From the NCBI GenBank assembly GCA_017445925.1, contig JAFSRW010000049.1, positions 6,384 to 70,383 on the forward strand: a DNA stretch of 64,000 nucleotides, read 5' to 3'. Below, piece after piece: positions 3,495-60,538 of this stretch. A program made the translations under genes and the position numbers. The notes beneath the pieces are model-generated. The model saw nothing but the letters and a program-made list of their open reading frames with translations. It had not been told where the DNA came from and ran no database searches. Source of the stretch: Bacteroidaceae bacterium. GTDB lineage: Bacteria > Bacteroidota > Bacteroidia > Bacteroidales > Bacteroidaceae. Numbering within the stretch: position 1 is the stretch's first letter; the number at the start of each line of letters is the position of its first letter.

Positions 3495-3529
3495 CAATGT
3501 TCAATGTTCAATGTTCAATGTTCAATGTT
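3495..3529. repeat. (CAATGTT)5 heptanucleotide array (family A, TTGAACA on minus strand)
   Basis: Five perfect tandem 7-nt units read directly. Lies in the divergent region between the OMP gene and aroB. Confidence 0.95.
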
Positions 3530-3534
3530 TTTTG

Positions 3535-3542
3535 TAATTTTG
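3535..3542 (+). promoter_or_regulatory. Bacteroidota -7 promoter box TAatTTTG upstream of aroB
   Basis: Matches the TAnnTTTG consensus, 24 nt upstream of the ATG at 3566. Confidence 0.45.
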
Positions 3543-3565
3543 CCCCCAAATTACAAAAAACAAAG

Positions 3566-4624
3566 ATGAAGCAAGACGTTGTTATTAGCCAAAACCTGCA
3601 GGCAGATTTGCAGCAAGCCATTAGTCGCTGTCCGCACGATAAACTTTTTGTCCTTACCGATACCACCACGCTGCGCCTCTGCTGGCCCGTGATAAAGGAT
3701 TTTCCTTATCTGAAAGAAGTGCAGATGATAACCATTGGTGCTACCGATGAGAATAAGACTCTGCAGACGCTCGCTTCCGTTTGGGAAGCCTTGCAGCAGG
3801 GAGGTGCTACGCGTCACAGCCTGCTCATCTGCTTGGGAGGCGGAATGGTAACAGACCTTGGGGGATTTGCTGCCAGCACCTTCAAGCGAGGCATTCAGTA
3901 CATCAATATTCCCACTACCTTATTAAGTATGGTAGACGCCAGCGTGGGAGGCAAGACGGGCATTAACTTTGGCGGCTTGAAGAACGAGATTGGTGTCTTC
4001 AACTGCGCCAGCACCGTTATACTCTGTGCCGAGTTCCTTCGCACCTTGGACGATTACAACATCCGTTCCGGCTATGCCGAGATGCTTAAGCACGGCATCA
4101 TCAGCAATACGGAGAATTGGGCAGAGCTTATCACCTTCGACTTGGATAACATCGACTATGCCCACCTTCAGCAGATGGTTGCCAAGAGTGTTGCCATCAA
4201 GGAACGCATTGTAGAGGAAGACCCTACGGAGAAGGGCATCCGTAAGGCCTTGAACTTAGGCCATACAGCTGGTCACGCCTTAGAGAGTTTGGCTTTAGCC
4301 GAGAACCGCACCGTTCTGCACGGATATGCGGTTGCCTGGGGCTTGGTTTGCGAGTTGTACCTGAGTGCCAAGCGTCTCAATTTCCCAAAGGACAAACTCA
4401 GCCAGACCCTTCAGTTCATAAAGGAAACTTACGGGGTGTTTACCTTCAACTGCAAGCAGTACGACCGCCTGTATCAGTTTATGCAACACGACAAGAAGAA
4501 CCAGTCGGGCGTCATCAACTTCACTCTTATGGCGGATATTGGCGACATCCGCATCAACCAAACCGCTACGCAGGAAGAAATCCAGGACATGTTGGATTTC
4601 TATCGCGAAAGTATGGGTTGTTAA
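3566..4624 (+). CDS. aroB: 3-dehydroquinate synthase
   Basis: Motifs LGGGMVTDLGGFAASTFKRGI, VGGKTGINF and LNLGHTAGHALE. The track ORF starts at 3497 inside the heptamer array. ATG at 3566 (MKQDVV..) lies downstream of the -7 box and is preferred. Confidence 0.9.
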   Translation: MKQDVVISQNLQADLQQAISRCPHDKLFVLTDTTTLRLCWPVIKDFPYLKEVQMITIGATDENKTLQTLASVWEALQQGGATRHSLLICLGGGMVTDLGGFAASTFKRGIQYINIPTTLLSMVDASVGGKTGINFGGLKNEIGVFNCASTVILCAEFLRTLDDYNIRSGYAEMLKHGIISNTENWAELITFDLDNIDYAHLQQMVAKSVAIKERIVEEDPTEKGIRKALNLGHTAGHALESLALAENRTVLHGYAVAWGLVCELYLSAKRLNFPKDKLSQTLQFIKETYGVFTFNCKQYDRLYQFMQHDKKNQSGVINFTLMADIGDIRINQTATQEEIQDMLDFYRESMGC

Positions 4625-4686
4625 CAAATCATAAAAATCCGCACCTTAAACATAACATACCATTTCTTTGTGCGTTGTAAGAGCAG

Positions 4687-5181
4687 ATGACACAGATAGA
4701 ATTTGAACATACGCTGCTTATGACTCGCACAAAGATGCTGCGTGTTGCCACAGACTTCTTCCGTAACGATGAGGATGCTGAGGATATAGTGCAGGAGGTC
4801 TACGAGCGTATGCTCCGCCGAGGATGGCAAGAGGGCGACGATCTGGAAGCCCTCCTTATCCGAGCTACCAAGAATCTGTGTGTGAGTGTGTGGCGACGCC
4901 AGAAGCTCCGAGCCACAGAACCATTGGCCTGTGTGCCTGAACCAGAAGAACGGCATTCTGCCGATGCCTCTCTCATAGAGCGTGAAACGAGCATAAAACT
5001 TGAAAGTGCTATCCGGCAATTACCTCCCTCAGAGCAAAGGCTCATCCGACTGAAAAGCGACGAACTGAGCATAGAGGAGATTTCACAGCAGACAGGCATT
5101 CCCAAACGTACCGCCAGCGCTATGCTCAGCACAGCAAAAAGGCGATTATTAAACATCTTAAAGACGAAAGCAAATGATTGA
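4687..5181 (+). CDS. ECF-type RNA polymerase sigma-70 family factor (cassette 1)
   Basis: Region 2-like DAEDIVQEVYERMLRR. Region 4 HTH LPPSEQRLIRLKSDELSIEEISQQTGIPKRTASAMLSTAKRRL. 164 aa. Confidence 0.8.
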   Translation: MTQIEFEHTLLMTRTKMLRVATDFFRNDEDAEDIVQEVYERMLRRGWQEGDDLEALLIRATKNLCVSVWRRQKLRATEPLACVPEPEERHSADASLIERETSIKLESAIRQLPPSEQRLIRLKSDELSIEEISQQTGIPKRTASAMLSTAKRRLLNILKTKAND

Positions 5182-5734
5182 CAAAGAACTGATACACCAA
5201 GCCGCAGAGGATATTGATATCTTTCAGGCCGACCTGACAGAGGAGTACGACCAGTTGATGGAAGCAAGAAAGAAGCCTCGTCGCCGCCTTCGCCTCTGGC
5301 CCCTTGCCGCAGCTGCTTGTGTGGCTGGCATCATCGCCATTTTCCTTGCTCCGCCCAGAACGTCAGAGGAACAACCGCCCCTCGCTTTGGAAGAGCCAAG
5401 AGTCGAGAGTCAAGAGCCAATAACCGAGAGTCAAGAGCCAAGGGTCGAGAGTCAAGAGCCAATAACCGAGAGTCAAGAGCCAAGAGTCGAGAGCCAAAAG
5501 ATAACTGTCACCTCTCGAAGGCCAAAAGCTAAAAGCCAACAGCCAACAGCCAACAGCCAAGAGCCGATAGAAGAGCCGATGCTGGCAGAGGCGGAGGTCG
5601 GGAGAGGGGCTCATCCTGAAATGGAGGACCCACTCCTTGCTGTGGCGGCTCAGATTCAAGACATTCGTTCGCGAGGGGAACGTTTAGGACGAGAGATAGC
5701 ACAATTAACGGATAATAAAATAAAATATCAATAA
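5174..5734 (+). CDS. single-pass membrane protein, putative anti-sigma factor (cassette 1)
   Basis: Overlaps the sigma gene by 8 nt. One TM segment LWPLAAAACVAGIIAIFLAPP. Low-complexity ESQEPRV/ESQEPIT linker. Conserved C-terminal helix MEDPLLAVAAQIQDIRSRGERL. The anti-sigma role is inferred from position only. Confidence 0.55.
   Translation: MIDKELIHQAAEDIDIFQADLTEEYDQLMEARKKPRRRLRLWPLAAAACVAGIIAIFLAPPRTSEEQPPLALEEPRVESQEPITESQEPRVESQEPITESQEPRVESQKITVTSRRPKAKSQQPTANSQEPIEEPMLAEAEVGRGAHPEMEDPLLAVAAQIQDIRSRGERLGREIAQLTDNKIKYQ
5393..5568 (+). repeat. coding period-7 DNA repeat (GAGCCAA/GAGTCGA/GAGTCAA, then AGCCAAC) encoding the ESQEPRV-type linker
   Basis: Tandem 7-nt units read directly (5393-5497 and 5534-5568). 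The 21-nt super-period gives 7-aa peptide repeats. Confidence 0.9.
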
Positions 5735-5735
5735 C

Positions 5736-6908
5736 ATGAAACGAATATTTGCAATCATTTTCTTGGCAGCATTTGCCGTTGTAGCGTTCTGCCAGGAACC
5801 CAATAAGCAACTTCGCCAATTGGAGAAATACCTGAACGAGCAGGGGTACGAGGTAAAACACAGTCAGAGTAACGCAGGAGGGAAAATCGCGCATGTTTGG
5901 ACTTCGTGGCAAAGCTTTGGCTATCTTACTCTTCCTGAGGGATGGTCAGTTGGTGAAGAAAGGTCGCGTGTCCAAAATGTTGGCGTTCATCGTGTAAAAC
6001 AGGAAAAGATGATAGAGATGCTTGATACCGCCAGACATGCTTTTTCCACATTGAGTAAGGAGGCTTCTGAGAGCTATTGCTATGAGTATCACAAGAAAGG
6101 AAAGGATACTATTAAATATGCTATGGCAACTTGTAATGATGTGGATACGCTTTCTTCTTTTTCGCACGAAGGGACAAAGTATTTCTTTAATGCACAGGAA
6201 ACGGCTAATTTTGATTACACAAGTAGGACATTTGAGAATGAAATCAAAGGCTTGGAAGACAGCGAGAACAAGAAAACCCACACACTCGATGCAAGCGGTT
6301 TCTACCAGCATTATTACTCAATACCCAGCGAGTTCGGTTGGGATGATATGCAGCCTTTTGATACCACAGCTTTTAAGGCACTTATTAAGCCTGTTCTTAA
6401 AAAAGTGTTGAAACTGAAGGGCGCAAAGTCCAGTTCCGTATATTGGCGACACGATGAGGGATGTACGGCAGATGGTCTTTGGCGTCAGTCTTTTGTAGTG
6501 CCATATGGTCTGACTACGGGTACAATGTATTATATTCCTGCGGAACATGCGGCAGAGGTCGATTTGCTATGTCGTGAGTTGGATTCGTTGGCATACCATT
6601 ATGTGAACAGTCATCCTGAGCAACCCTACGAATACACATATTACGACAGACCAATTCGTCAGCCCGAGGAAGGTAACCATGGTACGTTTTCATTTGATAT
6701 AGTTAATGGAGTTTCCTATAAAGGAGGTAACGAATACTACCTGATGTGCGGGTCTGATGCCAGTGGCTTCTACATCCTATCCCTTATAAGCAGAGGTGCG
6801 ATTTGGATTCCATACGATTGGCTAAGACTAAAGAGCTGGATCAACGGCGAAAAGGTTTACCTGAAAGGAAGGGAGCCGAAGGAAGATAAAAATGGTTTTA
6901 AAATTTAA
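5736..6908 (+). CDS. secreted protein of unknown function, cassette paralog P1
   Basis: Signal peptide MKRIFAIIFLAAFAVVAFCQ. Paralogous to 8342-9544 and 15955-17133 (shared QEPNKQLRQLEKYL, HPEQPYEY, GFYILSL..IWIP, KSWINGEKVYLKG). No family recognised. Confidence 0.75.
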   Translation: MKRIFAIIFLAAFAVVAFCQEPNKQLRQLEKYLNEQGYEVKHSQSNAGGKIAHVWTSWQSFGYLTLPEGWSVGEERSRVQNVGVHRVKQEKMIEMLDTARHAFSTLSKEASESYCYEYHKKGKDTIKYAMATCNDVDTLSSFSHEGTKYFFNAQETANFDYTSRTFENEIKGLEDSENKKTHTLDASGFYQHYYSIPSEFGWDDMQPFDTTAFKALIKPVLKKVLKLKGAKSSSVYWRHDEGCTADGLWRQSFVVPYGLTTGTMYYIPAEHAAEVDLLCRELDSLAYHYVNSHPEQPYEYTYYDRPIRQPEEGNHGTFSFDIVNGVSYKGGNEYYLMCGSDASGFYILSLISRGAIWIPYDWLRLKSWINGEKVYLKGREPKEDKNGFKI

Positions 6909-7084: not shown

Positions 7085-7624
7085 ATGGAGAAGGAAACAA
7101 ACACGTTGATTCAAGACTTGCAGCACCAGAAGCCCGCTGCCTGCCAGAAGCTACTTTCGGACTACGGTCCGGCTGTCTTCCGAATGGTGCAGCGCATCAT
7201 CACCCAGCGTGAGGATGCCGAGGAGGTTTATCAGGATGTGTTTGTTAAGGCACTACGGGGCATCCAGAACTATAACCCCAAGCAAGCGTCGCTCGGTACT
7301 TGGCTCAGCAGGATTGCTTATAACGAGTCGCTCAACTTCCTGCGCAGCCGAAAGCCTAACATTATATATATAGACGACCGCGAGCTGGGCTCCGATTCCT
7401 TTGAAGTTCCTGATGATGCACCACAAGACGAGCACACCATAGCACTTCTGGAGCAGGCCTTATCCTTACTGCCGCCTCATGAACAGGCCATTATAAGCAT
7501 GTTCTACTACGAAGAAAAGAGCCTTGCCGATATTGCCTATATCACAGGCTCCATTCCCTCTACCGTCGGCTCCCAGTTGAGTCGCATACGCAAGAAACTA
7601 TACAGAATCATTAAAACTCTCTGA
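7085..7624 (+). CDS. ECF-type RNA polymerase sigma-70 family factor (cassette 2)
   Basis: DAEEVYQDVFVKALRGIQNYNP..LGTWLSRIAYNESLNFLRSRK (regions 2.1-2.4). LPPHEQAIISMFYYEEKSLADIAYITGSIPSTVGSQLSRIRKKL (region 4). Confidence 0.85.
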   Translation: MEKETNTLIQDLQHQKPAACQKLLSDYGPAVFRMVQRIITQREDAEEVYQDVFVKALRGIQNYNPKQASLGTWLSRIAYNESLNFLRSRKPNIIYIDDRELGSDSFEVPDDAPQDEHTIALLEQALSLLPPHEQAIISMFYYEEKSLADIAYITGSIPSTVGSQLSRIRKKLYRIIKTL

Positions 7625-7627
7625 GCT

Positions 7628-8329
7628 ATGAACGATATTAAGAACGACATCAACCTTAAGGAAGCTGTCAGCAGGCGTGAGCAACAACTGCCACCCATGC
7701 CTGAAGGGTTGAATGAAAAGGTAATGGGAAGCCTCGAAGAGTACGATTGTCTTAAGAAGAAAACTCCCCTCCATAGAGGGAGGGGATGGAGGTGGGTCTT
7801 TTTAGCTGCCGCTTGTGTCGCAGGCTTCGTTGTCATCTTCTTGGCACCGCCAAAATCGGCAGAGAAGCAACCGCCCCTCGCTTTAGAAAAGCCAAGAGTT
7901 GAGAGTCAAGAGCCAATAGCAGACTCTCAATTCAGCACTCCCCTAAAGGGGCGACTGGGGTCTTTAGAGTTGCCACTGAATGTGGCTACGGCCCCACAAA
8001 GGGGAGCGAATCCCCATTCGCGACGGAGGGCAAGGATGGAGGGGGCCTCTCAACAGCCTGCTGTTGTAAAGCCTAAAAGGACTCCTAAGCGAAAGCGAGT
8101 CGTTCCCCAAGAACCTCAGGAAGAGCCTTTGCTGGCAGAAGCAGAAACCGTTGAAGAGTTTCCTACAGAAGCAGCTTATCAAGAGTTTCTTGATAAAATG
8201 AGGAAACCTTCTACTTCTTCTTATGCTACCCAAACACAGGAAATCCGTGAGCGAGGCGAGCAGGTGACACAATATGTGGCAATGCTTAATCAGCAAATTA
8301 AAACAGAACAACAATATGTAGAATACTAA
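7628..8329 (+). CDS. single-pass membrane protein, putative anti-sigma factor (cassette 2)
   Basis: Starts 3 nt after the sigma stop. TM segment WVFLAAACVAGFVVIFLAPP. EKQPPLALEKPRVESQEP is shared with cassette 1. Contains several GC-rich family B segments (PLHRGRGW, STPLKGRLG, PQRGANP). Confidence 0.55.
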   Translation: MNDIKNDINLKEAVSRREQQLPPMPEGLNEKVMGSLEEYDCLKKKTPLHRGRGWRWVFLAAACVAGFVVIFLAPPKSAEKQPPLALEKPRVESQEPIADSQFSTPLKGRLGSLELPLNVATAPQRGANPHSRRRARMEGASQQPAVVKPKRTPKRKRVVPQEPQEEPLLAEAETVEEFPTEAAYQEFLDKMRKPSTSSYATQTQEIRERGEQVTQYVAMLNQQIKTEQQYVEY

Positions 8330-8341
8330 ACAGAAGAAAAT

Positions 8342-9544
8342 ATGAAACGTTTTATCATTATATCGTTACTGACCGTCAATTTGATGAATGTGTCTGCCCA
8401 GAATGCAGGAATACTTGATGACATGTTCAGAAATCTGGAAGCCGTCATGCCTAATCAAGTCAGAAAAATTCGGGCGAATTATGGCAAGCATCAGACAGAA
8501 ACCATCGTGTACGCAAACGCGGGAACTAACGACTTTTGTTCCAAAAGAGCCTGCGGTTGGGAACATGATTACACAGATTCATTATGGAACGCTCTCTCTG
8601 CAGTTCCTGAGGTGGTGACTGGAATGTTGAATTATGAGAAAAAAGAACGTCTGCTGTATTGTGTCCATCACGCTCTCGATTCCATCTCAACCTTGCCCAG
8701 TACAGTAGAGAGTTATCATTTCGAGAAGCATCAGTTAGGCATAGATACTGTCCGCTATTCCATTTGCCTGAATCGAGGACCGGAACATCGTATAACGTAT
8801 GATAGCCTTCAGGATTGTCAGGTTTATAGCCGTGAACTCGGCCCAGAGACCATTACCTTCAATTACGAAACTCATCAAAAGTTTTGCGGCAAACATTTTG
8901 AGGGGTGGGGACATATCGAATATTCAAAGGTAGAGCCTCTGCCTGCATCCTTGGTGCCCGCAACCGCTAAGAAGTATGAACCTGTGTGCTTCGACTGGGA
9001 TCTATACCAGCAAAGCATCATGCCTATTCTTAGTCAGAAGGGAATCAGTCAGCGAAAGTTTAAATGGTCGCAAGATGAAGACTTTGCAAGGAAAGCACGA
9101 GGTTCAAATATAGATGATTATTCCATTATATACTATAATAAATTCGATGCGCTTGCAGTAGGCGAGACTAATGGCACTCTCTTCTTCATTCCTTCTGACC
9201 AAAAATCCTTTGCAGAACAGGTACTTAAGGATGTTGATGCCGCTACTCTGAAATATGTTCTCCTTCATCCCGAGCAGACGTATGAATATAAGTATAACAC
9301 TTTTTTCAACTCCCCAAACTATTGGCCTCGTTACGATCAGGAGATGATTAGGTCAACAACATTGAACAAGGATGGGATTCAGAACTTCGTTTACATTGGA
9401 GCAGATGAAAAGGGTTATTACTTCCTCCTCCTCAATACCAAAGGTAACTTGTTCTTCCCTAAGGAATTCTCTTCCCTTAAGTCTTTCGTTAACGGAGAAA
9501 AAACTTACTATAAAGGTATGGAGCCGAAGAAGGAAAAGAAATAA
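8342..9544 (+). CDS. secreted protein of unknown function, cassette paralog P2
   Basis: Signal peptide MKRFIIISLLTVNLMNVSAQ. Divergent paralog of P1/P3 (HPEQTYEYKYN, GYYFLLLNTKGNLFFP, KSFVNGEKTYYKGMEPKK). Confidence 0.75.
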   Translation: MKRFIIISLLTVNLMNVSAQNAGILDDMFRNLEAVMPNQVRKIRANYGKHQTETIVYANAGTNDFCSKRACGWEHDYTDSLWNALSAVPEVVTGMLNYEKKERLLYCVHHALDSISTLPSTVESYHFEKHQLGIDTVRYSICLNRGPEHRITYDSLQDCQVYSRELGPETITFNYETHQKFCGKHFEGWGHIEYSKVEPLPASLVPATAKKYEPVCFDWDLYQQSIMPILSQKGISQRKFKWSQDEDFARKARGSNIDDYSIIYYNKFDALAVGETNGTLFFIPSDQKSFAEQVLKDVDAATLKYVLLHPEQTYEYKYNTFFNSPNYWPRYDQEMIRSTTLNKDGIQNFVYIGADEKGYYFLLLNTKGNLFFPKEFSSLKSFVNGEKTYYKGMEPKKEKK

Positions 9545-9617: not shown

Positions 9618-9804
9618 ATGTTCGGCTTACTAAAAGGCAGGCGTTGCCGAAGGAAAAGTATTTTGTGCTCGGACAAAACTGTTTTTCTTCGGCAAAACAT
9701 TTTTTCTCACGCTGCGAGAATAAATTATCACACTGAAAGAATATATTTTCACACTGTGAGAAATTAATCTCTCAACGAGAGAAATTTATTTCCAAGGTTT
9801 TTTG

Positions 9805-13300: not shown

Positions 13301-13933
13301 ATGAGGGGAAATCCATTAATACAATTGGGTAATGTTCCTGTAAATGCAGGAACTATTGCTGCATGCTTCGAACACCTTTCTTCGCCCAGTGAAAAGATAC
13401 GAGCCTTGGAGAAGGATGGGCAGTTGATTCGCCTAAAGCGTGGTTTGTATGTGGTAGATGATAGGGTGAGTGGTAAGCCTATTAATGTCCGACTATGTGC
13501 CAACCATATTTATGGCCCGTCATACGTGTCGTTACAATGGGCTTTAAGGTGGTATGGGCTCATTCCTGAACGCGTGTTTACGATGACTTCCATCACCACC
13601 AAGCGAACTCGAATGTTTGAAAACTCCTTCGGACGTTTTACCTATTATCAGGTTAAACCAGACTATTTTCACATTGGAATCAGGAGCGTAGAAGAAAATG
13701 GATTAAATTGTCTTATGGCCAGTCCCGAAAAGGCTCTTTGTGACATGATTCTTTACGATTCCTATTTGCCTCCGCAATCTATAAAAGGTTTGGAACAATA
13801 CTTAGAAGAAGATATTCGCTTTGATACTGATGCCTTGAATGATTTTGATGTCGGTATCATAGAAGCATGTGCCCAAACGGGCAGAAAGGAACAGATATTG
13901 AATAACCTGATTAAAATTATCAAGAAAAGATGA
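13301..13933 (+). CDS. type IV toxin-antitoxin system AbiEi-family antitoxin-like protein
   Basis: GQLIRLKRGLYVV...LCANHIYGPSYVSLQWALRWYGLIPERVF resembles the AbiEi_4 domain. 4-nt ATGA overlap with the downstream nucleotidyltransferase gene. Confidence 0.65.
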   Translation: MRGNPLIQLGNVPVNAGTIAACFEHLSSPSEKIRALEKDGQLIRLKRGLYVVDDRVSGKPINVRLCANHIYGPSYVSLQWALRWYGLIPERVFTMTSITTKRTRMFENSFGRFTYYQVKPDYFHIGIRSVEENGLNCLMASPEKALCDMILYDSYLPPQSIKGLEQYLEEDIRFDTDALNDFDVGIIEACAQTGRKEQILNNLIKIIKKR

Positions 13934-14751
13934 GCATATATGATGATATGGTGACGGAATACGCCCAGAAGTTAGGCACATCTACGTCAAACGTTGAGCA
14001 AGAGGTAATGCAGCGTATAGCTCTTGCAGGATTACAGCGTGGGGGATTCTTTGATCACGCCGCCTTCTATGGCGGCACTTGTCTGCGAATCTTTCACGGA
14101 CTTCCTCGTTTTTCTGAGGATATGGATTTTTCCCTGATTGAGAAACGTGATGATATCCATTTGGAAAACTATTTCCCCGCTATCGTTGAAGAATTTAAGT
14201 TGGCAGGCCACGAAGTCAATATCGTAAAGAAGGATAAGAAGATATTTGGACGAGTAGAGTCGGCATTCCTCAAGGAAAATACCGAGGCATTCGATATCAA
14301 GTTCCAAACCAAGAAGACCGTTAAGGTAAAGATAGAACTCGACACCGACCCTCCCTTGGCCTTCGAGACGGAGCAGAAGCTTCTCATCCAACCCTATTCC
14401 TTTATGACTCGTTGCTTTACCTTACCATATTTATATGCTGGAAAGATGCACGCATTGGTCTATCGTGCTTGGCAACGAAGGGTCAAGGGGCGTGACTGGT
14501 ACGATTTCGAATGGTATGTTCGCCATCAGATTCCTTTAGATTACCAACATCTGAAGGAGAGAATCCGTGAGTTTAGTGGCGAAGTGGTGGAAAAGGAAAC
14601 ATTTATGCAGCTTCTCCGTAAAAAGCTTTCGTCAACGGACATAGAACTGGTTAAGCAGGATGTAATGGGGTTTGTCGACAACCCTCACGAACTTGATATT
14701 TGGTCTAACGACTACTTCTTGCAGTTGGCAGACATGATTGTGTTTAAGTGA
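13930..14751 (+). CDS. nucleotidyltransferase AbiEii/AbiGii-family toxin
   Basis: FYGGTCLRIFHGLPRFSEDMDFSL matches the GGTxLxxxxxxxRxSxDxDF signature of DUF1814/AbiEii. 273 aa. Confidence 0.75.
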   Translation: MSIYDDMVTEYAQKLGTSTSNVEQEVMQRIALAGLQRGGFFDHAAFYGGTCLRIFHGLPRFSEDMDFSLIEKRDDIHLENYFPAIVEEFKLAGHEVNIVKKDKKIFGRVESAFLKENTEAFDIKFQTKKTVKVKIELDTDPPLAFETEQKLLIQPYSFMTRCFTLPYLYAGKMHALVYRAWQRRVKGRDWYDFEWYVRHQIPLDYQHLKERIREFSGEVVEKETFMQLLRKKLSSTDIELVKQDVMGFVDNPHELDIWSNDYFLQLADMIVFK

Positions 14752-14809: not shown

Positions 14810-15322
14810 ATGGAACAGATAGAGTTCATAAGATTAGCACCCCAATTGCGAGGAAAGGCAATGGCCATAGGCCAGTCGTTCTTTGCCTCCGAGGAAGAGG
14901 CCGAGGATGTGGCGCAGGAGACGCTCATCCGACTGTGGAAAGCATGGGAAGGATTAACTTCGGCAGAAGAAGCCGAAAGACTGACCGTAAGGGTTGCTAA
15001 GTATGAGTGTATAAATGCTTGGCGCAGAGAGCAGAGCAGACCGCACACATCACTCAGTTCGGCACAGGAGGTAACGCATCCGATGACGCAGAACGGGCAA
15101 CCGATGGAAGGCGATGAACTCTCGGAAGCTATACGCAGGGCAGCCGGTACACTAACCAAGTCCGAAGCCCGTCTGTGGCGCCTGTTTGCCGAGGCAGGAA
15201 TGACGGCAGCAGAGATTTCTGCCATTACAGAGATAAATGTGCGGTCGGTCAGCACAATGCTCAGCCATGCCAGAAGCCATATTTACAAATTGTTGAAAGA
15301 AGGAGGATACATAGATGGATAA
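14810..15322 (+). CDS. ECF-type RNA polymerase sigma-70 family factor (cassette 3)
   Basis: EAEDVAQETLIRLWKAW (region 2). LTKSEARLWRLFAEAGMTAAEISAITEINVRSVSTMLSHARSHIYKLL (region 4). Closest to the cassette 1 sigma (shared MxQIEF start). Confidence 0.8.
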   Translation: MEQIEFIRLAPQLRGKAMAIGQSFFASEEEAEDVAQETLIRLWKAWEGLTSAEEAERLTVRVAKYECINAWRREQSRPHTSLSSAQEVTHPMTQNGQPMEGDELSEAIRRAAGTLTKSEARLWRLFAEAGMTAAEISAITEINVRSVSTMLSHARSHIYKLLKEGGYIDG

Positions 15323-15953
15323 GAAACAAATCATAGAGGATTACCTGCAAGGTCGTCACCCCATGGAGCAACAATCGTGGGAAATGCCCTCAGCCCAGGA
15401 ACTGGATAATGCCGAAGTAGAGTTCGACCGAATCAAAAAAAGCCTCACCCCCCGTCCTCTCCGAAAGGAGAGGGGGCTAAAGTTCTGGCCTTTAGCGATT
15501 GCTGCTTGTTTGGCAGGCTTCGTTGTCATATTCTTGGCACCGCCCAGAACGGCAGATGAACCGATAGCCAGCAGTCAAGAGCCAAGAGTCGAGAGTCAAG
15601 AGCCAATAGCCAGCAGCCAACTGTCAACTGTCAACTGTCAACTTTCAACTCACGAAGGCCCAGAGCCAAGGGTCGAGAGTCAAGAGCCAACAGCTAGCAG
15701 CCAAGAGCCAAGGGTCGAGAGCCCAGAGCCAAAAGCCAAGAGCCAACAGCCAACGGCCAAAAGCCAAGAGCCAATAGCGGAGCCTATGCAGGCAGAGGCG
15801 GAAGCTCCTGCAGAAGAAGTACGACCCATTCTTCCCGAAATGGAGGACCCGTTCCTTGCCATAGCAGAACAGATGCAGGACATCCGTTCGCGAGGCGAAC
15901 AGGTACGTCAGGAAGTAGCACAATTAATAGAAAATAAAGATAATCTTCAATAA
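15315..15953 (+). CDS. single-pass membrane protein, putative anti-sigma factor (cassette 3)
   Basis: 8-nt overlap with the sigma gene. TM segment FWPLAIAACLAGFVVIFLAPP. Long SQEPRVE/QLSTVNC heptad linker. Conserved C-terminus MEDPFLAIAEQMQDIRSRGEQV. Confidence 0.55.
   Translation: MDKKQIIEDYLQGRHPMEQQSWEMPSAQELDNAEVEFDRIKKSLTPRPLRKERGLKFWPLAIAACLAGFVVIFLAPPRTADEPIASSQEPRVESQEPIASSQLSTVNCQLSTHEGPEPRVESQEPTASSQEPRVESPEPKAKSQQPTAKSQEPIAEPMQAEAEAPAEEVRPILPEMEDPFLAIAEQMQDIRSRGEQVRQEVAQLIENKDNLQ
15565..15775 (+). repeat. coding period-7 repeat tract mixing GAGCCAA/GAGTCAA and CAACTGT/CAACTTT units
   Basis: Read directly. Contains CAACTGTCAACTGTCAACTGTCAACTTTCAACT, the complement of family A TTGA units, flanked by GAGCCAA-type units. 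Confidence 0.9.
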
Positions 15954-15954
15954 A

Positions 15955-17133
15955 ATGAAAAAAATATTCACAATCATCCTGCTGGCAGTCGTTTCTGCCG
16001 CAGCATTTAGCCAGGAACCCAACAAGCAGCTTCAGCAGTTGGAGAAATATCTGCAAGAACTGGACTTAGGTGTTTCCCACGAACAATCCAACTGTGGTGG
16101 CACTACTAATATTCGACATACATGGCGGAGCATGTTCTATGAATCCACACAAAAAATACTCGCTGATGAAAGCCTAAGCGAGGAAAAAAGAAAACAGTAT
16201 CAAGCCTATCATGACGAATTTATCGCCAAGAGATGGAAGAATCTTGAGCACGCAGTAGACTCTGTTCGGCTTGCTTTTGCACGTCTGAGTAAGGAAACTT
16301 CTAAAAGTTATCTCTTTGAAGATCACATGGATGGTACCGACACCATAAAATACGCACTGGCTTTTGCCCGTCCCGATGGTATGGCTCCTTTCCTTTATGA
16401 ACAAAAAAAATCTAATAGAGCGGAATTTTTTGGCGCCCGCGAGGCGGCAAGTTTTAATTTCGACAAGAACTTCGACAGCCAAGGCCAGTATTTCGTTGGG
16501 AAGGGCAGTTATGAACACGTCTATGAGATAGAAACAGGCCTAACGTGGGAAAATGATATGAAAAACTTTGACATTGAGGCTTTTCAGGCGCTTATCCAGC
16601 CCGTAATAAAGCCCCTTCTGTCCCTGAAAGGAGCAAAATCATATCCTGTATATTGGCGACATGACGTTGGCTATGAAGATGAAGTGGGGAAAAACGGCGG
16701 ACTAACTCACAAGACTACTTCTTATGGGAGCGATGCGTCAGGCCAAGGGCTTACTACGGGATCTTTCTGCTTTATTCCTGCCCAGTACGAGGCAGAAGCG
16801 AAGGCGCTTCACAAGCAGCTCGACTCGCTCTCTCTGGCCTATGTCAACCAGCATCCAGAGCAGCCATACATTTACAAGTATTCCAAGGACTATTCGTTCT
16901 TCAATATCGTGGAGATATTAAATGGGCACCGGCATCACGGTAGCGATGATTATAGCCTCAGGAGCTATTCTGACCCCGACGGCTTTTATATTCTTTCCCT
17001 TACCACAAAGGGCGATATCTGGATTCCCCGCGAATGGCCAAAGCTGAAAAGCTGGATCAATGGCGAAAAAGTCTATCTGAAAGGAAAAGCACCAAAAAGG
17101 ACCCCTAACCCCCTTAATGGGGGAATGAAATAG
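15955..17133 (+). CDS. secreted protein of unknown function, cassette paralog P3
   Basis: Signal peptide MKKIFTIILLAVVSAAAFSQ. Strongly similar to P1 at both ends (QEPNKQLQQLEKYL; GFYILSLTTKGDIWIP..KSWINGEKVYLKGK). Confidence 0.75.
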   Translation: MKKIFTIILLAVVSAAAFSQEPNKQLQQLEKYLQELDLGVSHEQSNCGGTTNIRHTWRSMFYESTQKILADESLSEEKRKQYQAYHDEFIAKRWKNLEHAVDSVRLAFARLSKETSKSYLFEDHMDGTDTIKYALAFARPDGMAPFLYEQKKSNRAEFFGAREAASFNFDKNFDSQGQYFVGKGSYEHVYEIETGLTWENDMKNFDIEAFQALIQPVIKPLLSLKGAKSYPVYWRHDVGYEDEVGKNGGLTHKTTSYGSDASGQGLTTGSFCFIPAQYEAEAKALHKQLDSLSLAYVNQHPEQPYIYKYSKDYSFFNIVEILNGHRHHGSDDYSLRSYSDPDGFYILSLTTKGDIWIPREWPKLKSWINGEKVYLKGKAPKRTPNPLNGGMK

Positions 17134-17276: not shown

Positions 17277-17384
17277 TATCACAGATCACAGTATCACAGT
17301 TTTTCAAAAAGTATCAGAAAGTGTTACTTAAGTAAAGGTAATTTCGACCTAAAATAGAAACTGTGATACTGTGATAACTGTGAT
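17277..17384. repeat. inverted pair of ATCACAG(T) micro-arrays (long hairpin potential)
   Basis: Left arm TATCACAGATCACAGTATCACAGT (17277-17300). Right arm ACTGTGATACTGTGATAACTGTGAT (17359-17384). Imperfect reverse complements separated by 58 nt. Confidence 0.85.
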
Positions 17385-20351: not shown

Positions 20352-22913
<2,562 letters not shown>

Positions 22914-35650: not shown

Positions 35651-35714
35651 ACTTTAGACGTTTTGAATTTTGAATTAAACTAATATAAACTGCCCAAGAC
35701 CCTGCATTGCAGTT

Positions 35715-38777: not shown

Positions 38778-41700
38778 TTTACAGCCTTCTTTTGTCCGTT
38801 GATGATGTAAACGCCACTCTTCAGTTGAGAGTTGACAGGTGACAGTTGAGAGTTGACAGGTGACAGTTGAGAGTTATATTTGCGTCCACTGAGGTCATAA
38901 ACTGAATGTTCAATGTTCAATGTTGAATGTTCAATGATTGATGTAGCTTCATCCAAGTCGATGACAAGTGGATTCATAGGTGTTCCGTAGATGCCATCCG
39001 TCTGGAAGTTGACAGTTGTGGTAGCATCAATAACCTGATTGTCGACAACAACCTTGAAGGTGAGCACAGCTTCTTCCTCGCCAGGAATGGTCAGGTAAGC
39101 CATACCCTCCTTATCGGTTATGGTTGCTGTGCGACATTCCTCATCGGCAAAGACGCCCAGTTCCGTATTGGTCAACGGACTTCCTGCTGCTACAATCCTG
39201 ACAGCCATGATGGCATTACCTGAGTAGGCATGACGATCTACAGGCTGGAAGACACCCAGTTTCTCCTGTTGCAGCGCCCTTACATTCTGGCGTGGATAAC
39301 CAAAGTCGCGGTTGGTGCTCACATTCATCACATAACCTAAGCCTGGCTCCATCATTACCAGCGTACCGTTCCACTCGTAGTTATTGAAGTAGGTTACGCC
39401 GCTCTGTCCCTTTACGATGTCGCCGTTCTCTGGATTCATATTTGCCAAGGCATCGGCCACAGAGGCAACATTCCGTCCGTAGTAGCCTACCCAGTTCCAA
39501 CCAGCTTTCAGTTCAATGGGGCATTTTGCAGGATCTACCGGCTCGCCTACAATGTGCAGCTTACCGTTATTCTTCATCTGTACGGCATACATCTGTCCGT
39601 TCTCCAGATCGCCTGTCAGGTTACCCTTCCATGTGCCGTGCTCGTGATACATATATCCGTCCTCGAAACTCTTGATGGCAAGCACATCATCCATCAAATT
39701 ATCGAACAGAGCAGAAACTTTCATATCATCGGCCTTAACGTAGAACGATACCCAGTTCCAACCAGCCTTAAGATTAGTTGACTGCTCTATCTTGTCGAGT
39801 GCGTTGAGCACGACGGGCGTTTCGTACCTGCCTTCCAATAACATTGGGGTAAAGGTGATGGTGCGATCGGGCTGCACGGCAGGATAAAGTGTACCTGTGG
39901 ATGCATCATAGGCGCGGAAGGTTACCTCCTTGTCTGCGTCATCGTCGCCGTAGATATCCATTGTAACAAAGTAGCTGTCGTAACGCTCCATGTAGGCAGG
40001 ATGTGCCACGCCTCTGCATTCGCCATCAATGAATGCTGCCACTATGTCATCCTCGTCGGTTACGGGTACGCCCAGAATCTCCACTCTGCCTATAACGCTC
40101 ATAGAGTTCTCGTAGTCATTGGGATTGATGTTCCAATAAGGAATCTGTCCGGTTACGTTGATGCTGAGTGTCAATGGCGTCTCTATGCCGTTGTTGCCCT
40201 TCAGATATATGGTCTCCTCGTACTTGCCGATGGGTGTGGCAGAACTGATGGTAAAGGTAACCATTGTTTCGTCCAACGGGTTAGTTGTACCATATTCGTC
40301 AGTAGCCGTGAGCCATGAAGGCATTCCCGAAAGTGTCCACATCTGCTGCTGGCCGCTCTTGTTGATAACGGTGGCGGTGACGCTGCTTTCGGTCTTTACC
40401 TGCTTTGTCAGAGTCAGTTCATCCTTGTCCCAAGCCAACTCGTTCCTGTTGACAAAGGCACTCCAGATGGCAGGAACGGAGTAGTTGCCGTTCTCGTCGC
40501 GAACATCTCGAACCGTGAAGTTCAGGGTACAGCCTTCTATGATGGCAGGATCTTCGTCGATGTTGATAACCACCTTCTCGTTGCTGGCCACATAGGTAAA
40601 GCTGACGTTGGTCTCTGTTGGCTTTGTGCGTAAGGCAGGAGCGTTATCTACATAGTTGAGAGTTGAAAGTTGAGAGTTGAGAGTTAAGACTTCTGCCTGA
40701 TGCCCGCTGCCCGTAAGGTCTGTTGCATCGCCGACGGTAACGACCTGATTACCTGAGTCGAGCGTCTTCTTCTCGAAGGGATAGTAAGCTACCAAACCAT
40801 CCTCTGAACCAGTGAGACGTACCTTGCGGTTCTTGCTCAGCAAGTCGGCGTTCAGTGTGGCGTTCCATACGCGTACCTCATCTAATTGTCCCTTGAAGCC
40901 ATGATCGTAAGCGTAGGTGCCGAAGTCCTGAGATACGGTGGTGCGATGAGCACCCAGAATCAGGTTATTGGTGGCGATACTGCCCACGTTTGCTGAGGCT
41001 GTGCTCAAGCAACGCTTACCATCCACATAAACAGCGGCGGCTCCCTGACGCAGCACATTCAGTGCAACGTGATGCCAAACGTTATCTGTAATTGAAAGTT
41101 GAGAGTTGAAAGTTGAGAGTTGAGAGCCGTCTGGGAGATAGGCATCCTTTCCTGTGAGCTGGAGGTTACCCTCGGCAGTGAGGGAGAGTGCTACGTCTCC
41201 CATCTGAAGCAGCTGGGCCTCACCGGTCTGCTCTCCACCACGCATCCAGAACTCCAAGGCATAGTCATCGTCCACACAGGTGGGCAACTCCGAGGTATTG
41301 ATGCTCACGTAGCTTTGTCCGTCCAGGTTGATGGCCTTGTTCTCGTTGTTCAGGTACCACGTCTCTTCTGGCATCGTCATGTGACGGTTGCGAGCGTAGT
41401 CGCGGATGGTAGTGCCCTCACCCTCGTTCATCTTCCAGTAACCTATGAGGTGACGGGTTGAGGGGTTCTTGGTCTTGCTACGGTCGAGTAGGGCGGTGGT
41501 CATATCGTGAGCCTCGTCCCAGAGCAGCAGCTCGTGCATCGCGGTGGTGGTGTTACAGCCTACTTGCACGGGTCCGTTTCCTTCGTAGCTGTCAGCTGCC
41601 TCGTTCTTGAAGAGCGTAGTCTCATTGGCATCGTCGGCCACGGTAGCATTCAGTATTCCATCTGCTGTGAGGCTGAGGCTAAGGAATGCCCACTTACCTG

Positions 41701-48235: not shown

Positions 48236-48332
48236 GTTTTCTTGAATTAAGAATTAAGAGAGAAGAAAGAAGAATTAAACTCTTGAACTCTTCGTTTTTC
48301 TGCCCCAAAATAAATAAAACCTTATGGAATAA

Positions 48333-49967: not shown

Positions 49968-50027
49968 AGCCAAGAGCCAACAGCCAAAGTATTTAACTCC
50001 TTTAACTTCCTTAACTTCTTTAACTCC
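49968..50027. repeat. short-period arrays (AGCCAAG/AGCCAAC, then TTAACTYC-type 8-10-nt units) after the C1 peptidase stop
   Basis: Read directly. The minus (sense) strand carries repeated TAA triplets. Confidence 0.8.
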
Positions 50028-51467: not shown

Positions 51468-51504
51468 TAACTTTCAACTTTCAATTTTCAATTTTCAATT
51501 AATT
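51468..51504. repeat. family A heptamer array (TTCAACT/TTCAATT) upstream of the AraC gene
   Basis: TAACTTTCAACTTTCAATTTTCAATTTTCAATTAATT read directly. Confidence 0.9.
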
Positions 51505-54123: not shown

Positions 54124-54127
54124 AACC

Positions 54128-58434: not shown

Positions 58435-58436
58435 AG

Positions 58437-58475
58437 ACCCTCTCCCCATACCCTCCCCCTCTATGGGGAGGGGGA
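58437..58475 (-). repeat. family B GC-rich hairpin element after pyrE (possible terminator)
   Basis: GACCCTCTCCCCATACCCTCCCCCTCTATGGGGAGGGGG. The reverse complement reads CCCCTCCCC-ATAGAG-GGGGAGGG-TAT-GGGGAGAGGG-TC. Confidence 0.85.
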
Positions 58476-58508
58476 AATTATAATTTTATAAATTTTGAAT
58501 TTATATAG

Positions 58509-58988
58509 ATGGCAGAATATAAAAGTGACGTTAAGAAGATTTACTACCCCGTAGAACGGGTGTATGAACGTCTTTCCGACCTGAACAACTTGACAGTTAT
58601 TCAGCAGAATCTCGACAATCCCATGATTCGCGAAAAGATGCTGGAGCAGGCAGGCGATAAGGCATCGCCTGAACAGTTGGACAGCGTTCTGGAGAAACTG
58701 CGTGAACTGAAGTTCGACAGCGATAGTGTTTCTGGCTCCTCACCCATGGGCAACATTACGCTGCGCATCATTGAGCGCGAGGAGAACAAAACCATCAAGT
58801 TCGCTTTGGAGGGTGCTCCCATTCTGGCCAACATGTGGATACAGTTGCTACCTGCAACAGATCAGGAGTGCGCTATGAAACTGACAGTAAAGGCCGACCT
58901 GAATTTCTTCATCAAGCAGGTGATTGGCAACAAACTGCAGCAGGGGGTAGATGGGTTGGCACAGATGTTGGCTAGTATTCCTTATTGA
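58509..58988 (+). CDS. SRPBCC-like small protein of unknown function
   Basis: 159 aa with mixed alpha/beta composition. Lies in the pyrE-argH position. The family call is tentative. Confidence 0.4.
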   Translation: MAEYKSDVKKIYYPVERVYERLSDLNNLTVIQQNLDNPMIREKMLEQAGDKASPEQLDSVLEKLRELKFDSDSVSGSSPMGNITLRIIEREENKTIKFALEGAPILANMWIQLLPATDQECAMKLTVKADLNFFIKQVIGNKLQQGVDGLAQMLASIPY

Positions 58989-59018
58989 TAGTTGACAGTT
59001 GATAGTTGAGAGTCAGTT
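58984..59018. repeat. family A heptamer array (ATTGATA/GTTGACA..)
   Basis: ATTGATAGTTGACAGTTGATAGTTGAGAGTCAGTT. The gene's stop TGA (58986-58988) lies inside the first unit. Confidence 0.9.
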
Positions 59019-59119
59019 TAAAAAGTGGATAGTAGAAGGCTGCGATTGAGCGAGAGGAGAAGAAACCATAAACACTAACTTTTAATTCTTAACCCTTAAT
59101 TCTTTCTTAATCAAAATAA

Positions 59120-60463
59120 ATGGCAATGGCAAAGCTTTGGGATAAAGGATTTGAGATTCAAGACAAGATAGAAAGGTTTACTATTGGTCGTGACCGCGAG
59201 ATGGACCTCTATCTGGCAGAAGCCGATGTACTGGGTTCTATGGCTCACATCACTATGCTGGAGAGTATTGGTCTGCTGCAGGCCGACGAGTTGAAGCACC
59301 TCTTGGCTGAACTCAGGAACATTCACGCCCAGATTAAGAGAGGCGAGTTCGTAATTGAAGAAGGTATAGAGGATGTACACTCTCAGGTTGAATTGATGCT
59401 TACCCGCAAGTTGGGCGATATAGGTAAGAAAATTCATTCGGGTCGTAGTCGTAACGACCAGGTATTGGTAGACCTAAAACTCTTTATTCGTCGACAGTTG
59501 AAGGATATTGCCTCTGATGTTATGGAACTCTTCAAGGAGTTGCAGTCGCAGAGCGAACACTACAAGAATGTGCTGATGCCAGGCTATACGCATCTCCAAG
59601 TGGCTATGCCCAGTAGTTTTGGGCTTTGGTTTGGTGCCTACGCCGAGAGTCTGGTGGATGATATGATGTTCCTACAGGCAGCCTTCCGAATGACCAACCG
59701 CAACCCCTTAGGCTCTGCTGCCGGATATGGTAGCAGTTTCCCCTTGAACCGCACCATGACAACAGAACTGCTTGGGTTCGACTCTATGAACTACAACGTG
59801 GTTTATGCGCAGATGGGACGTGGAAAAACAGAGCGTAACGTGGCTTTTGCCCTTGCCAGCATAGCCGGCACCATTAGTAAGTTGGCCTTTGATGCCTGTA
59901 TGTTCAGCAGCCAAAACTTTGCCTTTGTGAAGCTGCCTAACGACTGCACCACAGGTTCCAGTATCATGCCACATAAGAAGAACCCTGATGTTTTTGAGCT
60001 TACTCGCGCCAAGTGCAACAAGTTGCAAGGCCTGCCCCAACAGATTACCCTCATTATGAACAATCTGCCCAGCGGCTATTTTCGCGACTTGCAAATCATA
60101 AAGGAAGTCTTTCTGCCTGCTTTCCAGGAGTTGCGCGACTGCCTGCAGATGACCACATACATTATTAATAAGATAAAGGTGAACGAGGATATCCTGTCTG
60201 ATTCGCGTTACGACCTTATTTTCTCCGTTGAAGAGGTGAATCGCCTGGTTACTGAAGGGATGCCTTTCAGAGACGCTTATAAGAAGGTGGGCTTGGATAT
60301 CGAGGCTGGCAAATTTACACCTTGCAAGGAGGTCCACCATACCCACGAGGGTTCTATCGGCAATCTCTGCACAGAGCAGATTGCTACCCTGATGGATAGT
60401 GTGTGGAAAGGTTTCAACTTTGAGAAGATGGAGAAGGCGGAGAGGGTGCTCATTGAACATTGA
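59120..60463 (+). CDS. argH: argininosuccinate lyase
   Basis: Motifs GRSRNDQV, GYTHLQVAMP and signature GSSIMPHKKNPD. Confidence 0.95.
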   Translation: MAMAKLWDKGFEIQDKIERFTIGRDREMDLYLAEADVLGSMAHITMLESIGLLQADELKHLLAELRNIHAQIKRGEFVIEEGIEDVHSQVELMLTRKLGDIGKKIHSGRSRNDQVLVDLKLFIRRQLKDIASDVMELFKELQSQSEHYKNVLMPGYTHLQVAMPSSFGLWFGAYAESLVDDMMFLQAAFRMTNRNPLGSAAGYGSSFPLNRTMTTELLGFDSMNYNVVYAQMGRGKTERNVAFALASIAGTISKLAFDACMFSSQNFAFVKLPNDCTTGSSIMPHKKNPDVFELTRAKCNKLQGLPQQITLIMNNLPSGYFRDLQIIKEVFLPAFQELRDCLQMTTYIINKIKVNEDILSDSRYDLIFSVEEVNRLVTEGMPFRDAYKKVGLDIEAGKFTPCKEVHHTHEGSIGNLCTEQIATLMDSVWKGFNFEKMEKAERVLIEH

Positions 60464-60538
60464 GCATTGAGCATTGAACATTGAGCATTGAAGATTGAGC
60501 ATTGATCATTGAGCATTTAACATTGAGCATTGAACATT
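60451..60538. repeat. family A heptamer array, about 12.5 units (CATTGAA/CATTGAG variants), the largest in the window
   Basis: Read directly. The argH stop (60461-60463) is the TGA of the second unit. Confidence 0.95.

Follow-up and report, generated by a model that had tools for sequence, protein, structure and literature searches.

The window analyzed here is a 64,000-nucleotide stretch of a contig from a Bacteroidaceae bacterium (JAFSRW010000049.1), in which short tandem arrays of 7-nt units, many of them beginning with TTGA, lie both between and within genes. According to Pfam, its open reading frames (ORFs) encode glycoside hydrolases (GHs) of families GH78, GH95, GH20, and GH2, and extracytoplasmic function (ECF) sigma factors with anti-sigma-like partners, a CarboxypepD_reg outer-membrane protein, and an HU-HIG protein were also found. 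The housekeeping genes include hflX, fumarase, FtsH, and argH. The G+C content is 44 to 55%, contigs nearly identical to the window originate from ruminant gut metagenomes, and those GH95 homologues that bear a name are labelled "Bacteroidaceae bacterium"; the source is thus a rumen Bacteroidales genome. Gene boundaries in the window were taken from gene calls on matching strain contigs.

The initial annotation of this stretch, made from the letters alone, had listed 16 loci with such arrays, and Tandem Repeats Finder together with direct reading recovered a tandem array at 16 of 16 coordinates, including the one array with a period of 8 nt (32510-32546). The pattern TTGANNNTTGANNNTTGA, which is TTGA three times at 7-nt spacing, has 43 matches at approximately 15 loci, whereas dinucleotide-preserving shuffles predict 0.01. 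Three or more perfect units in a row occur eight times at period 7 and not once at periods 4 to 6 and 8 to 12. Sorted by locus count, the unit families are TTGANAG (12), TTGARCA (4), and TTGAATT (3-4). In total, the 64-kb window holds 27 period-7 arrays, or 0.42 per kb, and arrays of non-TTGA units, e.g., GCCAAGA/AAGAGTC, AGTGAAG, AATGTTC, and TTTTCAC, are also present (5391-5565, 15566-15778, 22978-23006, 37523-37548, 37616-37646, 38905-38941, 48244-48278, 49968-49987, 59082-59104, and 61121-61152). About half of the window arrays lie inside coding sequence, and the arrays of the comparison loci described below are mostly intergenic. Head-to-tail 7-nt units in at least three copies, an excess specific to period 7, and dispersed loci with few unit families in common characterize these arrays as heptanucleotide simple sequence repeats (SSRs), as does whole-unit copy-number change between close strains. 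For most arrays, the TTGA strand is closed by TGA in all three frames and the complementary TCAA strand is open in all three, as had been proposed; the generalization fails at 35661-35676, where 2.3 units place TGA in only two frames, and at 60451-60538, where two frames of the complementary strand contain stops. Moreover, TTGA units alternate with GTGA units in 38822-38875.

All seven arrays located 3' of genes carry TTGA on the sense strand of the preceding gene, in agreement with the annotation (two-sided binomial p = 0.016). Three of these arrays supply the stop codon themselves: the first unit of (TTGARAG)8 at 33359-33418 (+) forms the rsmI stop (TGA 33361-33363), the first unit of (TTGAYAG)4 at 58984-59018 (+) forms the stop of a 159-residue SRPBCC-like gene with argH downstream (TGA 58986-58988), and the second unit of (CATTGAR)12.6 at 60451-60538 (+) forms the argH stop (TGA 60461-60463). 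Another three start at a TAA or TAG or right behind it. Here, (TTGARAG)5 at 26170-26204 (−) follows the GH20 stop (TAA 26204-26206), (TTGAATT)3.6 at 31351-31375 (−) adjoins the stop of the AI-2E transporter gene, which is also on the minus strand (TAA 31376-31378), and (AGTTGANAG)6 at 34288-34329 (+) lies directly behind the lipoprotein stop (TAG 34285-34287) and extends to the hflX start region. The seventh is the weak array (TTTTGAA)2.3 at 35661-35676 (+), which begins 10 nt after the hflX stop (TAG 35648-35650) and has two frames closed. Three arrays take up essentially the entire spacer, and in two of these cases the next ATG lies 4 nt beyond the array (26165 and 60543); 26170-26204 fills the 38-nt spacer between GH20 and the esterase ATG at 26165. 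The array at 33359-33418 ends 14 nt from the lipoprotein gene if ATG 33433 is its start or 41 nt if the called start at 33460 is used, and stop-bearing arrays ending at most 14 nt from an ATG number only 2-3 in the window. In the strain-contig gene calls, hflX starts at a TTG (34325) inside the array 34288-34329; the true start of hflX is uncertain, so these arrays can mislead start-codon prediction.

The strand rule was then examined in other genomes. A scan with one genome per species for (AGTTGAN)3AGTTGA yielded at least 119 loci in 117 sequence-independent clusters; among the matches listed, to which the stop-side and start-side counts below refer, approximately 42 belong to Cyanobacteria, approximately 42 to Bacteroidota, and the rest to many phyla. 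Both strands of 137 TTGA-family arrays with one closed and one open strand were compared symmetrically and without gene calls. On the TTGA strand, an ORF of 100 or more codons ended at the 5' edge of the array in 70 cases, vs 6 cases on the TCAA strand (p = 6e-15). The 70 stops comprise 34 TGA codons within the array, 13 stops overlapping its first bases, 21 lying wholly before it, and 2 TAG codons within it. Open-strand arrays are internal to long ORFs in 17 cases, and in another eight cases an ORF runs through the array and stops at most 30 codons on; when the read-through cases are counted as 3' ends, the ratio becomes 70:14, which is the fairest 3'-end comparison. Considering only stops that begin before the array, the ratio is 34:5 in favor of the TTGA strand. 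Because the bias persists under these stricter counts, orientation behind genes is not a mere by-product of how ORFs are defined, and the view of the strand rule as a tautology of that definition was rejected. The strand rule of the annotation for arrays behind genes is real and extends to the comparison loci.

A second bias was found at the start side. The ATG of an ORF of 100 or more codons follows the array at a distance of at most 25 nt in 35 cases on the open strand vs 9 on the closed strand (p = 1e-4), mostly at an offset of 0-8 nt. Counted per cluster, the ratios are 54:5 at the stop side and 31:8 at the start side. Between co-directional gene pairs of Bacteroidota, TCAA-sense arrays (20-21) are about as numerous as TTGA-sense arrays (19), with the TTGA-sense arrays at the upstream stop (−20 to +9 nt) and the TCAA-sense arrays at the downstream ATG. 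Hence the orientation rule proposed for intergenic arrays stands for those behind genes and not for intergenic arrays as a whole, since TCAA-sense ones precede ATGs. Taken together, the two biases amount to one geometric rule: read on its stop-bearing strand, an array leads away from the adjacent gene and into the spacer. The stop-side polarity is present in Bacteroidota (31:1), Cyanobacteria (18:3), and other phyla (21:2), and it also appears with non-TTGA stop-bearing units (8:1). Polarity across unit types and phyla argues for a generic constraint rather than a lineage-specific factor. A replication-strand bias was set aside, as the arrays track gene direction on both strands of the window.

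Inside coding sequence, TCAA is on the sense strand in all seven TTGA-family arrays (two in GH95, one in GH2, three in the giant protein, and one in the anti-sigma-like ORF 15315-15953), and the open strand is translated into SQLSTLNSQL-type 7-residue repeats, both as annotated. The gene for GH95 on the minus strand contains two of them. The first, (AGTTGAC/G)4 at 20572-20600 (+), codes for YQLSTVNCQL (residues 771-780) between the catalytic and C-terminal domains, and homologues carry from none up to several NSQLSTLNSQL-type units at this site. The second, (AGTTGAG)n with AGTC inserts in an 18-nt super-unit at 21277-21373 (+), falls within the catalytic domain (residues 513-545). An alignment of 40 GH95 sequences places PLSTFNPQPST(DSQLST)3LNSQLDY of the window protein opposite the ancestral loop STKDMGVEGPEY; homologues at 84-93% identity have fewer or differently phased units in this loop, and more distant GH95 lineages have different 7-residue repeats (RPQTSDL and others) in the identical loop. 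Among the homologues, copy number differs in whole-codon blocks only. Judging from these alignments, the in-gene arrays are frame-preserving loop insertions, and the ancestral GH95 loop is short.

Similar insertions are present in the other genes. The GH2 gene (+) contains TTGAATT-type followed by TTGARAG-type units at 28438-28504 (−), which code for LIQNSKFKNQDSNSQLSTFNFQL in an N-terminal discoidin-like domain. In the anti-sigma-like ORF 15315-15953 (+), a composite heptamer array of GCCAAGA, AAGAGTC, and CAACTGT (the last at 15618-15650) spans 15566-15778 (−); the sense strand is the open one and codes for an EPRVESQ / QLSTVNCQLST linker. The giant protein gene (−) holds (CAGTTGAGAGTTGACAGGTGA)2.6 with a 21-nt super-unit at 38822-38875 (+), (AGTTGAR)5 at 40654-40688 (+), and (TTGARAG)5 at 41090-41126 (+), which code for NSQLSPVNSQLSPVNSQL, VLTLNSQLSTLNY, and GSQLSTFNSQLSI, respectively, and the first of these lies in a loop of a C-terminal domain resembling the type IX secretion system (T9SS) sorting domain. 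This domain of the 3153-residue protein scores 22.7 bits against TIGR04183, for which the cut-off is 23. The non-TTGA array (AGTGAAG)4 at 22978-23006, with TGA on the plus strand, codes for SSLFTLHSSL near the C terminus of the esterase (gene on −). The super-periods of in-gene arrays are 18, 21, or 42 nt. As a separate observation, the esterase, a 436-residue protein, and the giant protein, all encoded on the minus strand, carry heptamer-coded peptides in an equivalent C-terminal loop between YDLSGRK and KKGIYI..GKK (22929-23100, 37467-37700, and 38774-39000); the C-terminal motifs of the esterase and the 436-residue protein have no family match.

Contingency loci of Haemophilus and Neisseria are slippage-prone SSRs, and the window arrays resemble them as slippage-prone repeats in or beside genes. 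Phase variation, in which slippage within a gene would shift the frame and switch surface proteins, is suggested by arrays that are open in three frames and lie in the T9SS-like C-terminal domain of the giant surface protein and in the similar motifs of the two other proteins, and by intergenic arrays that slip by 7 and 14 nt. However, in-gene arrays are unchanged in every near-identical strain contig, and GH95 homologues differ by whole codons only. Unlike at contingency loci, no frameshifted variant of an in-gene array was seen among the strain contigs and GH95 homologues, which are a shallow sample, and we consider this explanation very improbable.

Ten independently sampled contigs align with the window at 96-100% identity. 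In the comparison with 99.7-100% identical contigs (approximately 70 kb), three real indels are present outside one contig's N-filled gap, and two of them are within arrays. The array 31351-31375 has gained 7 nt, i.e., one more AATTCAA unit, in a near-identical strain contig, and 60451-60538 has lost 14 nt, i.e., two units, in contig L001; the third indel is a 3-nt deletion at 6054, outside the arrays. As the array indels are only +7 and −14 nt, the arrays behave as slippage-prone microsatellites and not as artefacts. That one contig (L002) ends within 60451-60538 is the observation in favor of an assembly artefact, which the annotation had named as grounds for abandoning its claim. However, assemblies of many independent samples contain these arrays, their in-frame translations are matched by repeats in homologous proteins of other assemblies, and they are present in isolate genomes, e.g., Bacteroides salyersiae DSM 18765; further isolates with AGTTGAN arrays are Bacteroides sp. 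51, Parabacteroides sp. PM6-13, and Ruminococcus flavefaciens ND2009. An artefact can therefore be dismissed for practical purposes.

Beyond these strains, array content is specific to lineages and changes rapidly. The weak array downstream of hflX (35661-35676) is missing from L124, a strain contig with 96% identity. Across 80 orthologous hflX loci (76-97% protein identity, 710 kb), only 51 period-7 arrays were found, mostly in the closest relatives, and the heptamers of those relatives differ (AACTATG, AATTAAG, TAAATAG, and AAGTGAA/TTTTCAC). At the rsmI-lipoprotein junction (33359-33418), relatives likewise have other heptamers. The lipoprotein C terminus ...QVK* is kept in 12 orthologues, so the native stop is older than the array 34288-34329 that follows it. 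Behind this stop, the (AGTTGANAG)6 array of the window is replaced by a 16-nt repeat in L130 (4409-4500), an 8-nt repeat in L136, inverted heptamer pairs in L131 and L135, and other heptamers in L133 and L196, and in L143 and L164 a plain GC hairpin with a T-run behind it stands in place of a tandem array. The suggested comparison of orthologous loci thus revealed unit-step variation among strains, together with relatives that mostly have no arrays at these junctions and close ones that have other units. Absence from most relatives and unit replacement in close ones argue against an indispensable site-specific function. Seeding of the array by duplication of the last codons and the stop was considered and is unsupported, as the gene-side 7 nt of stop-flush arrays match the array in register at 1.87/7 vs 2.03/7 for shifted controls. 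In L124, we also observed a C/G-rich inverted repeat, CCCCCTCT...AAGGGGAG, in place of the weak array (~900-960, corresponding to window 35650-35690) and a 14-nt insertion after the fumarase terminator region.

Three TTGA-family arrays are outside genes and not behind any of them; they occupy divergent spacers upstream of genes. The perfect five-unit array (AACATTG)5 at 3495-3529 (−) reads CAATGTT on the plus strand, i.e., the open TCAA orientation, with stops in 0 frames on the plus and 3 frames on the minus strand. It lies between an outer-membrane protein gene (−, start 3298) and a dehydroquinate (DHQ) synthase gene (+, ATG 3566), and a promoter-like box, TAATTTTG, is found 5 nt past it on the plus strand. 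The period-8 array (AGTTGACA)3.8 at 32510-32546 (+) separates the AI-2E gene (−, start 32422) from rsmI (+, start 32704). Likewise, (TTGAAAR)5 at 51468-51504 (−), whose plus strand is TCAA and open, is located 16 nt upstream of an AraC-family ATG (51521).

Promoter boxes also adjoin other arrays. In Bacteroidota loci, the Bacteroidota −7 box TAnnTTTG follows the array edge, mostly after 5-9 nt, at 26 of 416 array sides, compared with 1.1% expected. The window has two such boxes 5-8 nt past arrays: TACCTTTG at 31335-31342 (−) precedes tRNA-Lys and begins 8 nt beyond the end of 31351-31375, and TATCTTTG at 61158-61165 (+) precedes tRNA-Leu (61181) and lies 5 nt downstream of (TTTTCAC)4.6 at 61121-61152, which is open on the plus strand. 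These boxes, the TTTG provided by 31351-31375 at a distance of 19 nt upstream of TACCTTTG, the small number of unit families in each genome, and the TTGACAG units, which contain the sigma-70 −35 hexamer TTGACA, are consistent with arrays that serve as repeated binding sites of a protein recognizing DNA or RNA, or that contribute the upstream portion of promoters in Bacteroidota. However, arrays stand beside −7 boxes in both orientations and with unrelated units, most window arrays are in operon spacers or coding sequence, and no candidate binding protein was identified. Stop content rather than a specific motif explains the polarity, as it holds for non-TTGA units, and a binding or promoter role appears improbable to us.

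Single arrays of the window form no RNA structure on either strand beyond that of shuffles (z = −1.7 to +0.9), and their sequence has no stem-loop of the intrinsic terminator or repetitive extragenic palindrome (REP)-like kind. At the gathering score, the window matches to Rfam 15 are three tRNAs only, and no TTGA-family array of the window has a complementary partner nearby. In the comparison loci, 32 of 113 adjacent array pairs are inverted and complementary vs 7 of 113 direct. The layout of an inverted pair is a stop codon, (AGTTGAA)n, a loop, and (TTCAACT)n reaching an ATG, with predicted stems of −22 to −98 kcal/mol and one polarity among scored pairs (10:0, or 17:0 with half-scored pairs); the two arms have rare unit types in common. 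Examples are found in L012 (570-659), L046 (6400-6488), L079 (4141-4231), L108 (1507-1590), L131 (2438-2571), L135 (4873-4980), and L194 (1047-1149). We set aside Rho-dependent termination acting on C-rich antisense or leader transcripts, as the same polarity is seen in cyanobacteria, which are not known to have Rho.

The excess, stability, and single polarity of inverted pairs could mean that the arrays are arms of long hairpins, serving as terminator substitutes, RNase III sites, or attenuators, with single arrays as half-elements. The lipoprotein-hflX junction, with its inverted pairs in some lineages and its GC hairpin and T-run in L143 and L164, is in line with this, and inverted heptamer pairs were reported in Xanthomonas (PMC4692102). 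However, the window arrays lack both folding and partners, and the 3' arms reach the ATG without a T-run, which makes hairpin arms quite an improbable account of the arrays. As a separate observation, the window does contain an inverted pair of 7/8-nt arrays at 17277-17384, (TATCACAG)3, 58 nt, and (CTGTGATA)3, which lies ahead of the GH78 gene in a convergent spacer. The stop-bearing strands of this pair face outward, opposite to all other scored pairs, and the pair is flush with neither gene.

The annotation knew of no described function for such arrays. The same kind of element with the same logic was published by MacGregor (2015), where the heptamer is TAACTGA and the hosts are Beggiatoaceae, Cyanobacteria, and five Bacteroidetes (PMC4679880). 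The "forward" TAACTGA orientation has stops in all frames, and 13 sets overlap the stop of the upstream ORF; "reverse" sets in ORFs code for LSVISYQ at protein peripheries or in variable parts; indels between strains occur in 7-nt steps; and most sets closely precede a start codon and have the stop-bearing orientation (PMC4679880). A translational role was proposed for them (PMC4679880). The window arrays share with TAACTGA the closed orientation outside or at the end of ORFs and the open reverse orientation inside them. They differ in their units, which are TTGANNN (AGTTGAR, CATTGAR, TTGAATT) and others, in their greater length of up to 13 units, and in that about half are in genes. Furthermore, the TTGA family has the open strand at start codons (35:9) and the stop-bearing strand at stops (70:6), unlike TAACTGA.

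Heptamer repeats of cyanobacteria provide a second comparison. In Nostoc PCC 7120, (TTTTGAA)3 is found near start codons and promoters, heptamer repeats close to the recF and recO starts affect reporter expression, and deletion of the heptamer repeats upstream of recO alters reporter output (bioRxiv 10.1101/2022.06.06.494920). TTTTGAA is a rotation of the window unit TTGAATT (28438, 31351, and 35661), and AGTTGAN arrays among the matches listed come from Microcoleus, Chamaesiphon, Rivularia, Richelia, and Calothrix. The Calothrix heptamers, known as short tandemly repeated repetitive (STRR) sequences, are cited in PMC4692102. Like them, the window arrays are dispersed tandem heptamers chiefly near gene boundaries; unlike them, the window arrays reside in a rumen Bacteroidales host, and neither stop/start polarity nor entry into protein loops is described for STRR in the literature read. 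Rehm (2015) reported G-rich heptamer SSRs, GGGAATC / GGGGAYT, in Xanthomonas and Nostoc, and that paper, citing Mrazek (2007), also describes how heptamer SSRs are over-represented in bacteria, along with the hypothesis of polymerase slippage (PMC4692102). A period-7 intergenic excess, length variation among close relatives, and occasional inverted pairs are common to both, whereas the G-rich repeats are quadruplex-capable and the window units are A/T-rich, stop-bearing, and without folding. The repeat strings and the peptides QLSTLNS and AGTTGAGAGTTGAG had no match in the literature searched, and the window repeat family, its host, and a quantified two-sided polarity were not found there. The kind of repeat and the basic strand logic are thus already published, and we found no published account of the strength and generality of the polarity.

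We favor, as somewhat more probable than not, the view that the arrays are heptanucleotide microsatellites of the heptamer/STRR type whose placement is filtered by translation. Slipped-strand mispairing, the probable generating process, would add or remove whole units, and proliferation in this rumen Bacteroidales lineage would have filled much of the spare intergenic DNA as well as tolerant surface loops of proteins. The strand rule would then be the imprint of translation on where arrays persist, and the polarity would probably stem from purifying selection on translation and not from a dedicated function. The TTGA strand contains UUG start codons and would halt ribosomes whatever the frame, and on the sense side it would survive only outside coding sequence, flush with the upstream stop, supplying that stop in about half of the cases. 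The TCAA strand is free of stop codons as well as of ATG, GTG, and TTG, its commonest units lack G, and it is predicted not to fold; it is the sole translatable orientation, yielding QLSTLNS-type loops, and also the one preferred directly 5' of start codons. As a side effect, several intercistronic spacers of the window are unstructured, stop-saturated arrays with lengths that can vary by 7 or 14 nt. Generality across phyla and units, lineage-specific abundance, and fast turnover fit such a filter.

Several points weigh against a filter by translation. The arrays have sharp edges exactly at stops, ATGs, and promoter boxes, which a pure filter does not explain, and the gene-side flank contains no decayed unit (1.87/7 vs 2.03/7). 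The polarity is kept behind intact native stops, where orientation should be neutral (34:5; the lipoprotein in the window). Unrelated units recur at the same junctions across lineages, so that selection may maintain them, and few unit families occupy many unrelated loci within one genome. In addition, inverted pairs have rare units in common and always one polarity (10:0), and the genes of the comparison loci are ORFs of at least 100 codons rather than curated annotation.

Given the sharp edges, native-stop bias, junction recurrence, and few unit families, we hold a selected role to be credible but unlikely; the arrays would then serve as stop pads, leaders, or paired hairpins, which comes close to the stop insulation considered in the annotation. 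In one version, to which we give a minor share of probability, the arrays are selected translational punctuation: TTGA-sense arrays would act as an all-frame stop and unstructured spacer, TCAA-sense arrays as a leader for Shine-Dalgarno-independent initiation, and slippage would tune the downstream gene. The stop-flush polarity with the native stop intact, the open arrays ending 0-8 nt before ATGs, the arrays 26170-26204 and 60451-60538 that fill their spacers to within 4 nt of the next ATG, the recurrence of differing units at one junction, and the lack of folding all favor this. So do the absence of Shine-Dalgarno-based initiation and the low-structure leaders of Bacteroidetes, as given in PMC3155529, the reporter effects of heptamers near the recF and recO starts in Nostoc (bioRxiv 10.1101/2022.06.06.494920), and the translational role proposed by MacGregor (PMC4679880). 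However, the same junctions are array-free in most relatives, the strain at 96% identity lacks one array, polarity is also present in phyla that use Shine-Dalgarno sequences, and the start-side polarity of TAACTGA is the opposite, which leaves no single leader rule.

In its broadest version, which we likewise think doubtful, the arrays would be polarity-coded gene-boundary punctuation common to Bacteroidota, Cyanobacteria, and other phyla, maintained at junctions while their units turn over. Such arrays would form an all-frame termination pad behind a stop, a start-free and structure-free standby leader before an AUG, and, when paired, a long hairpin coupling or uncoupling cistrons, with slippage as an expression dial. 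Stop insulation, a binding platform, and replication or transcription punctuation, as put forward in the annotation, are all hypothetical functions; the single arrays have no RNA structure, and the arrays are missing from most relatives.

Whether filtered microsatellites or selected elements, heptamer repeats have been known for decades in cyanobacteria and noted in a few Bacteroidetes. In this gut and rumen Bacteroidales lineage, they constitute much of the intergenic DNA and also enter enzyme loops and secretion-signal domains. The 117 comparison loci turn an anecdotal strand rule into a testable, quantitative polarity at stops, starts, and inverted pairs. Should this polarity stem from selection on translation, it would be a natural read-out of the cost of read-through and upstream starts in bacteria without Shine-Dalgarno initiation; should it stem from a function, the arrays would be a widespread, tunable cis-element. 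In practice, the arrays break short-read assemblies, mislead start calling (the hflX TTG), and add repeat-coded peptides to annotated proteins.

The window has further features beside these arrays. The GH2 gene has an apparent start at ATG 28028, and the region 28028-28354 codes for a signal-peptide-like N terminus and a discoidin-like domain; an in-frame TAG (28328-28330) in the motif WIELD*G lies upstream of the ORF-finder start GTG 28355 and could be due to a pseudogene, a sequencing error, or read-through. Three triplets of an ECF sigma factor gene, an anti-sigma-like gene, and a gene of 390-400 residues are located at 4687-6908, 7085-9544, and 14810-17133. Two of their anti-sigma-like proteins have long heptamer-derived linkers (EPRVESQEPITESQ...), coded at 5391-5565 and 15566-15778 with super-periods of 21 and 42 nt. 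Tandem repeats of 19 nt and 21 nt at 9669-9762, upstream of the HU-HIG gene (9877), have no relation to the heptamer family. Finally, an AbiEi-like / AbiEii toxin-antitoxin pair is encoded at 13301-14751, between a thioredoxin-like gene and the third ECF sigma module.

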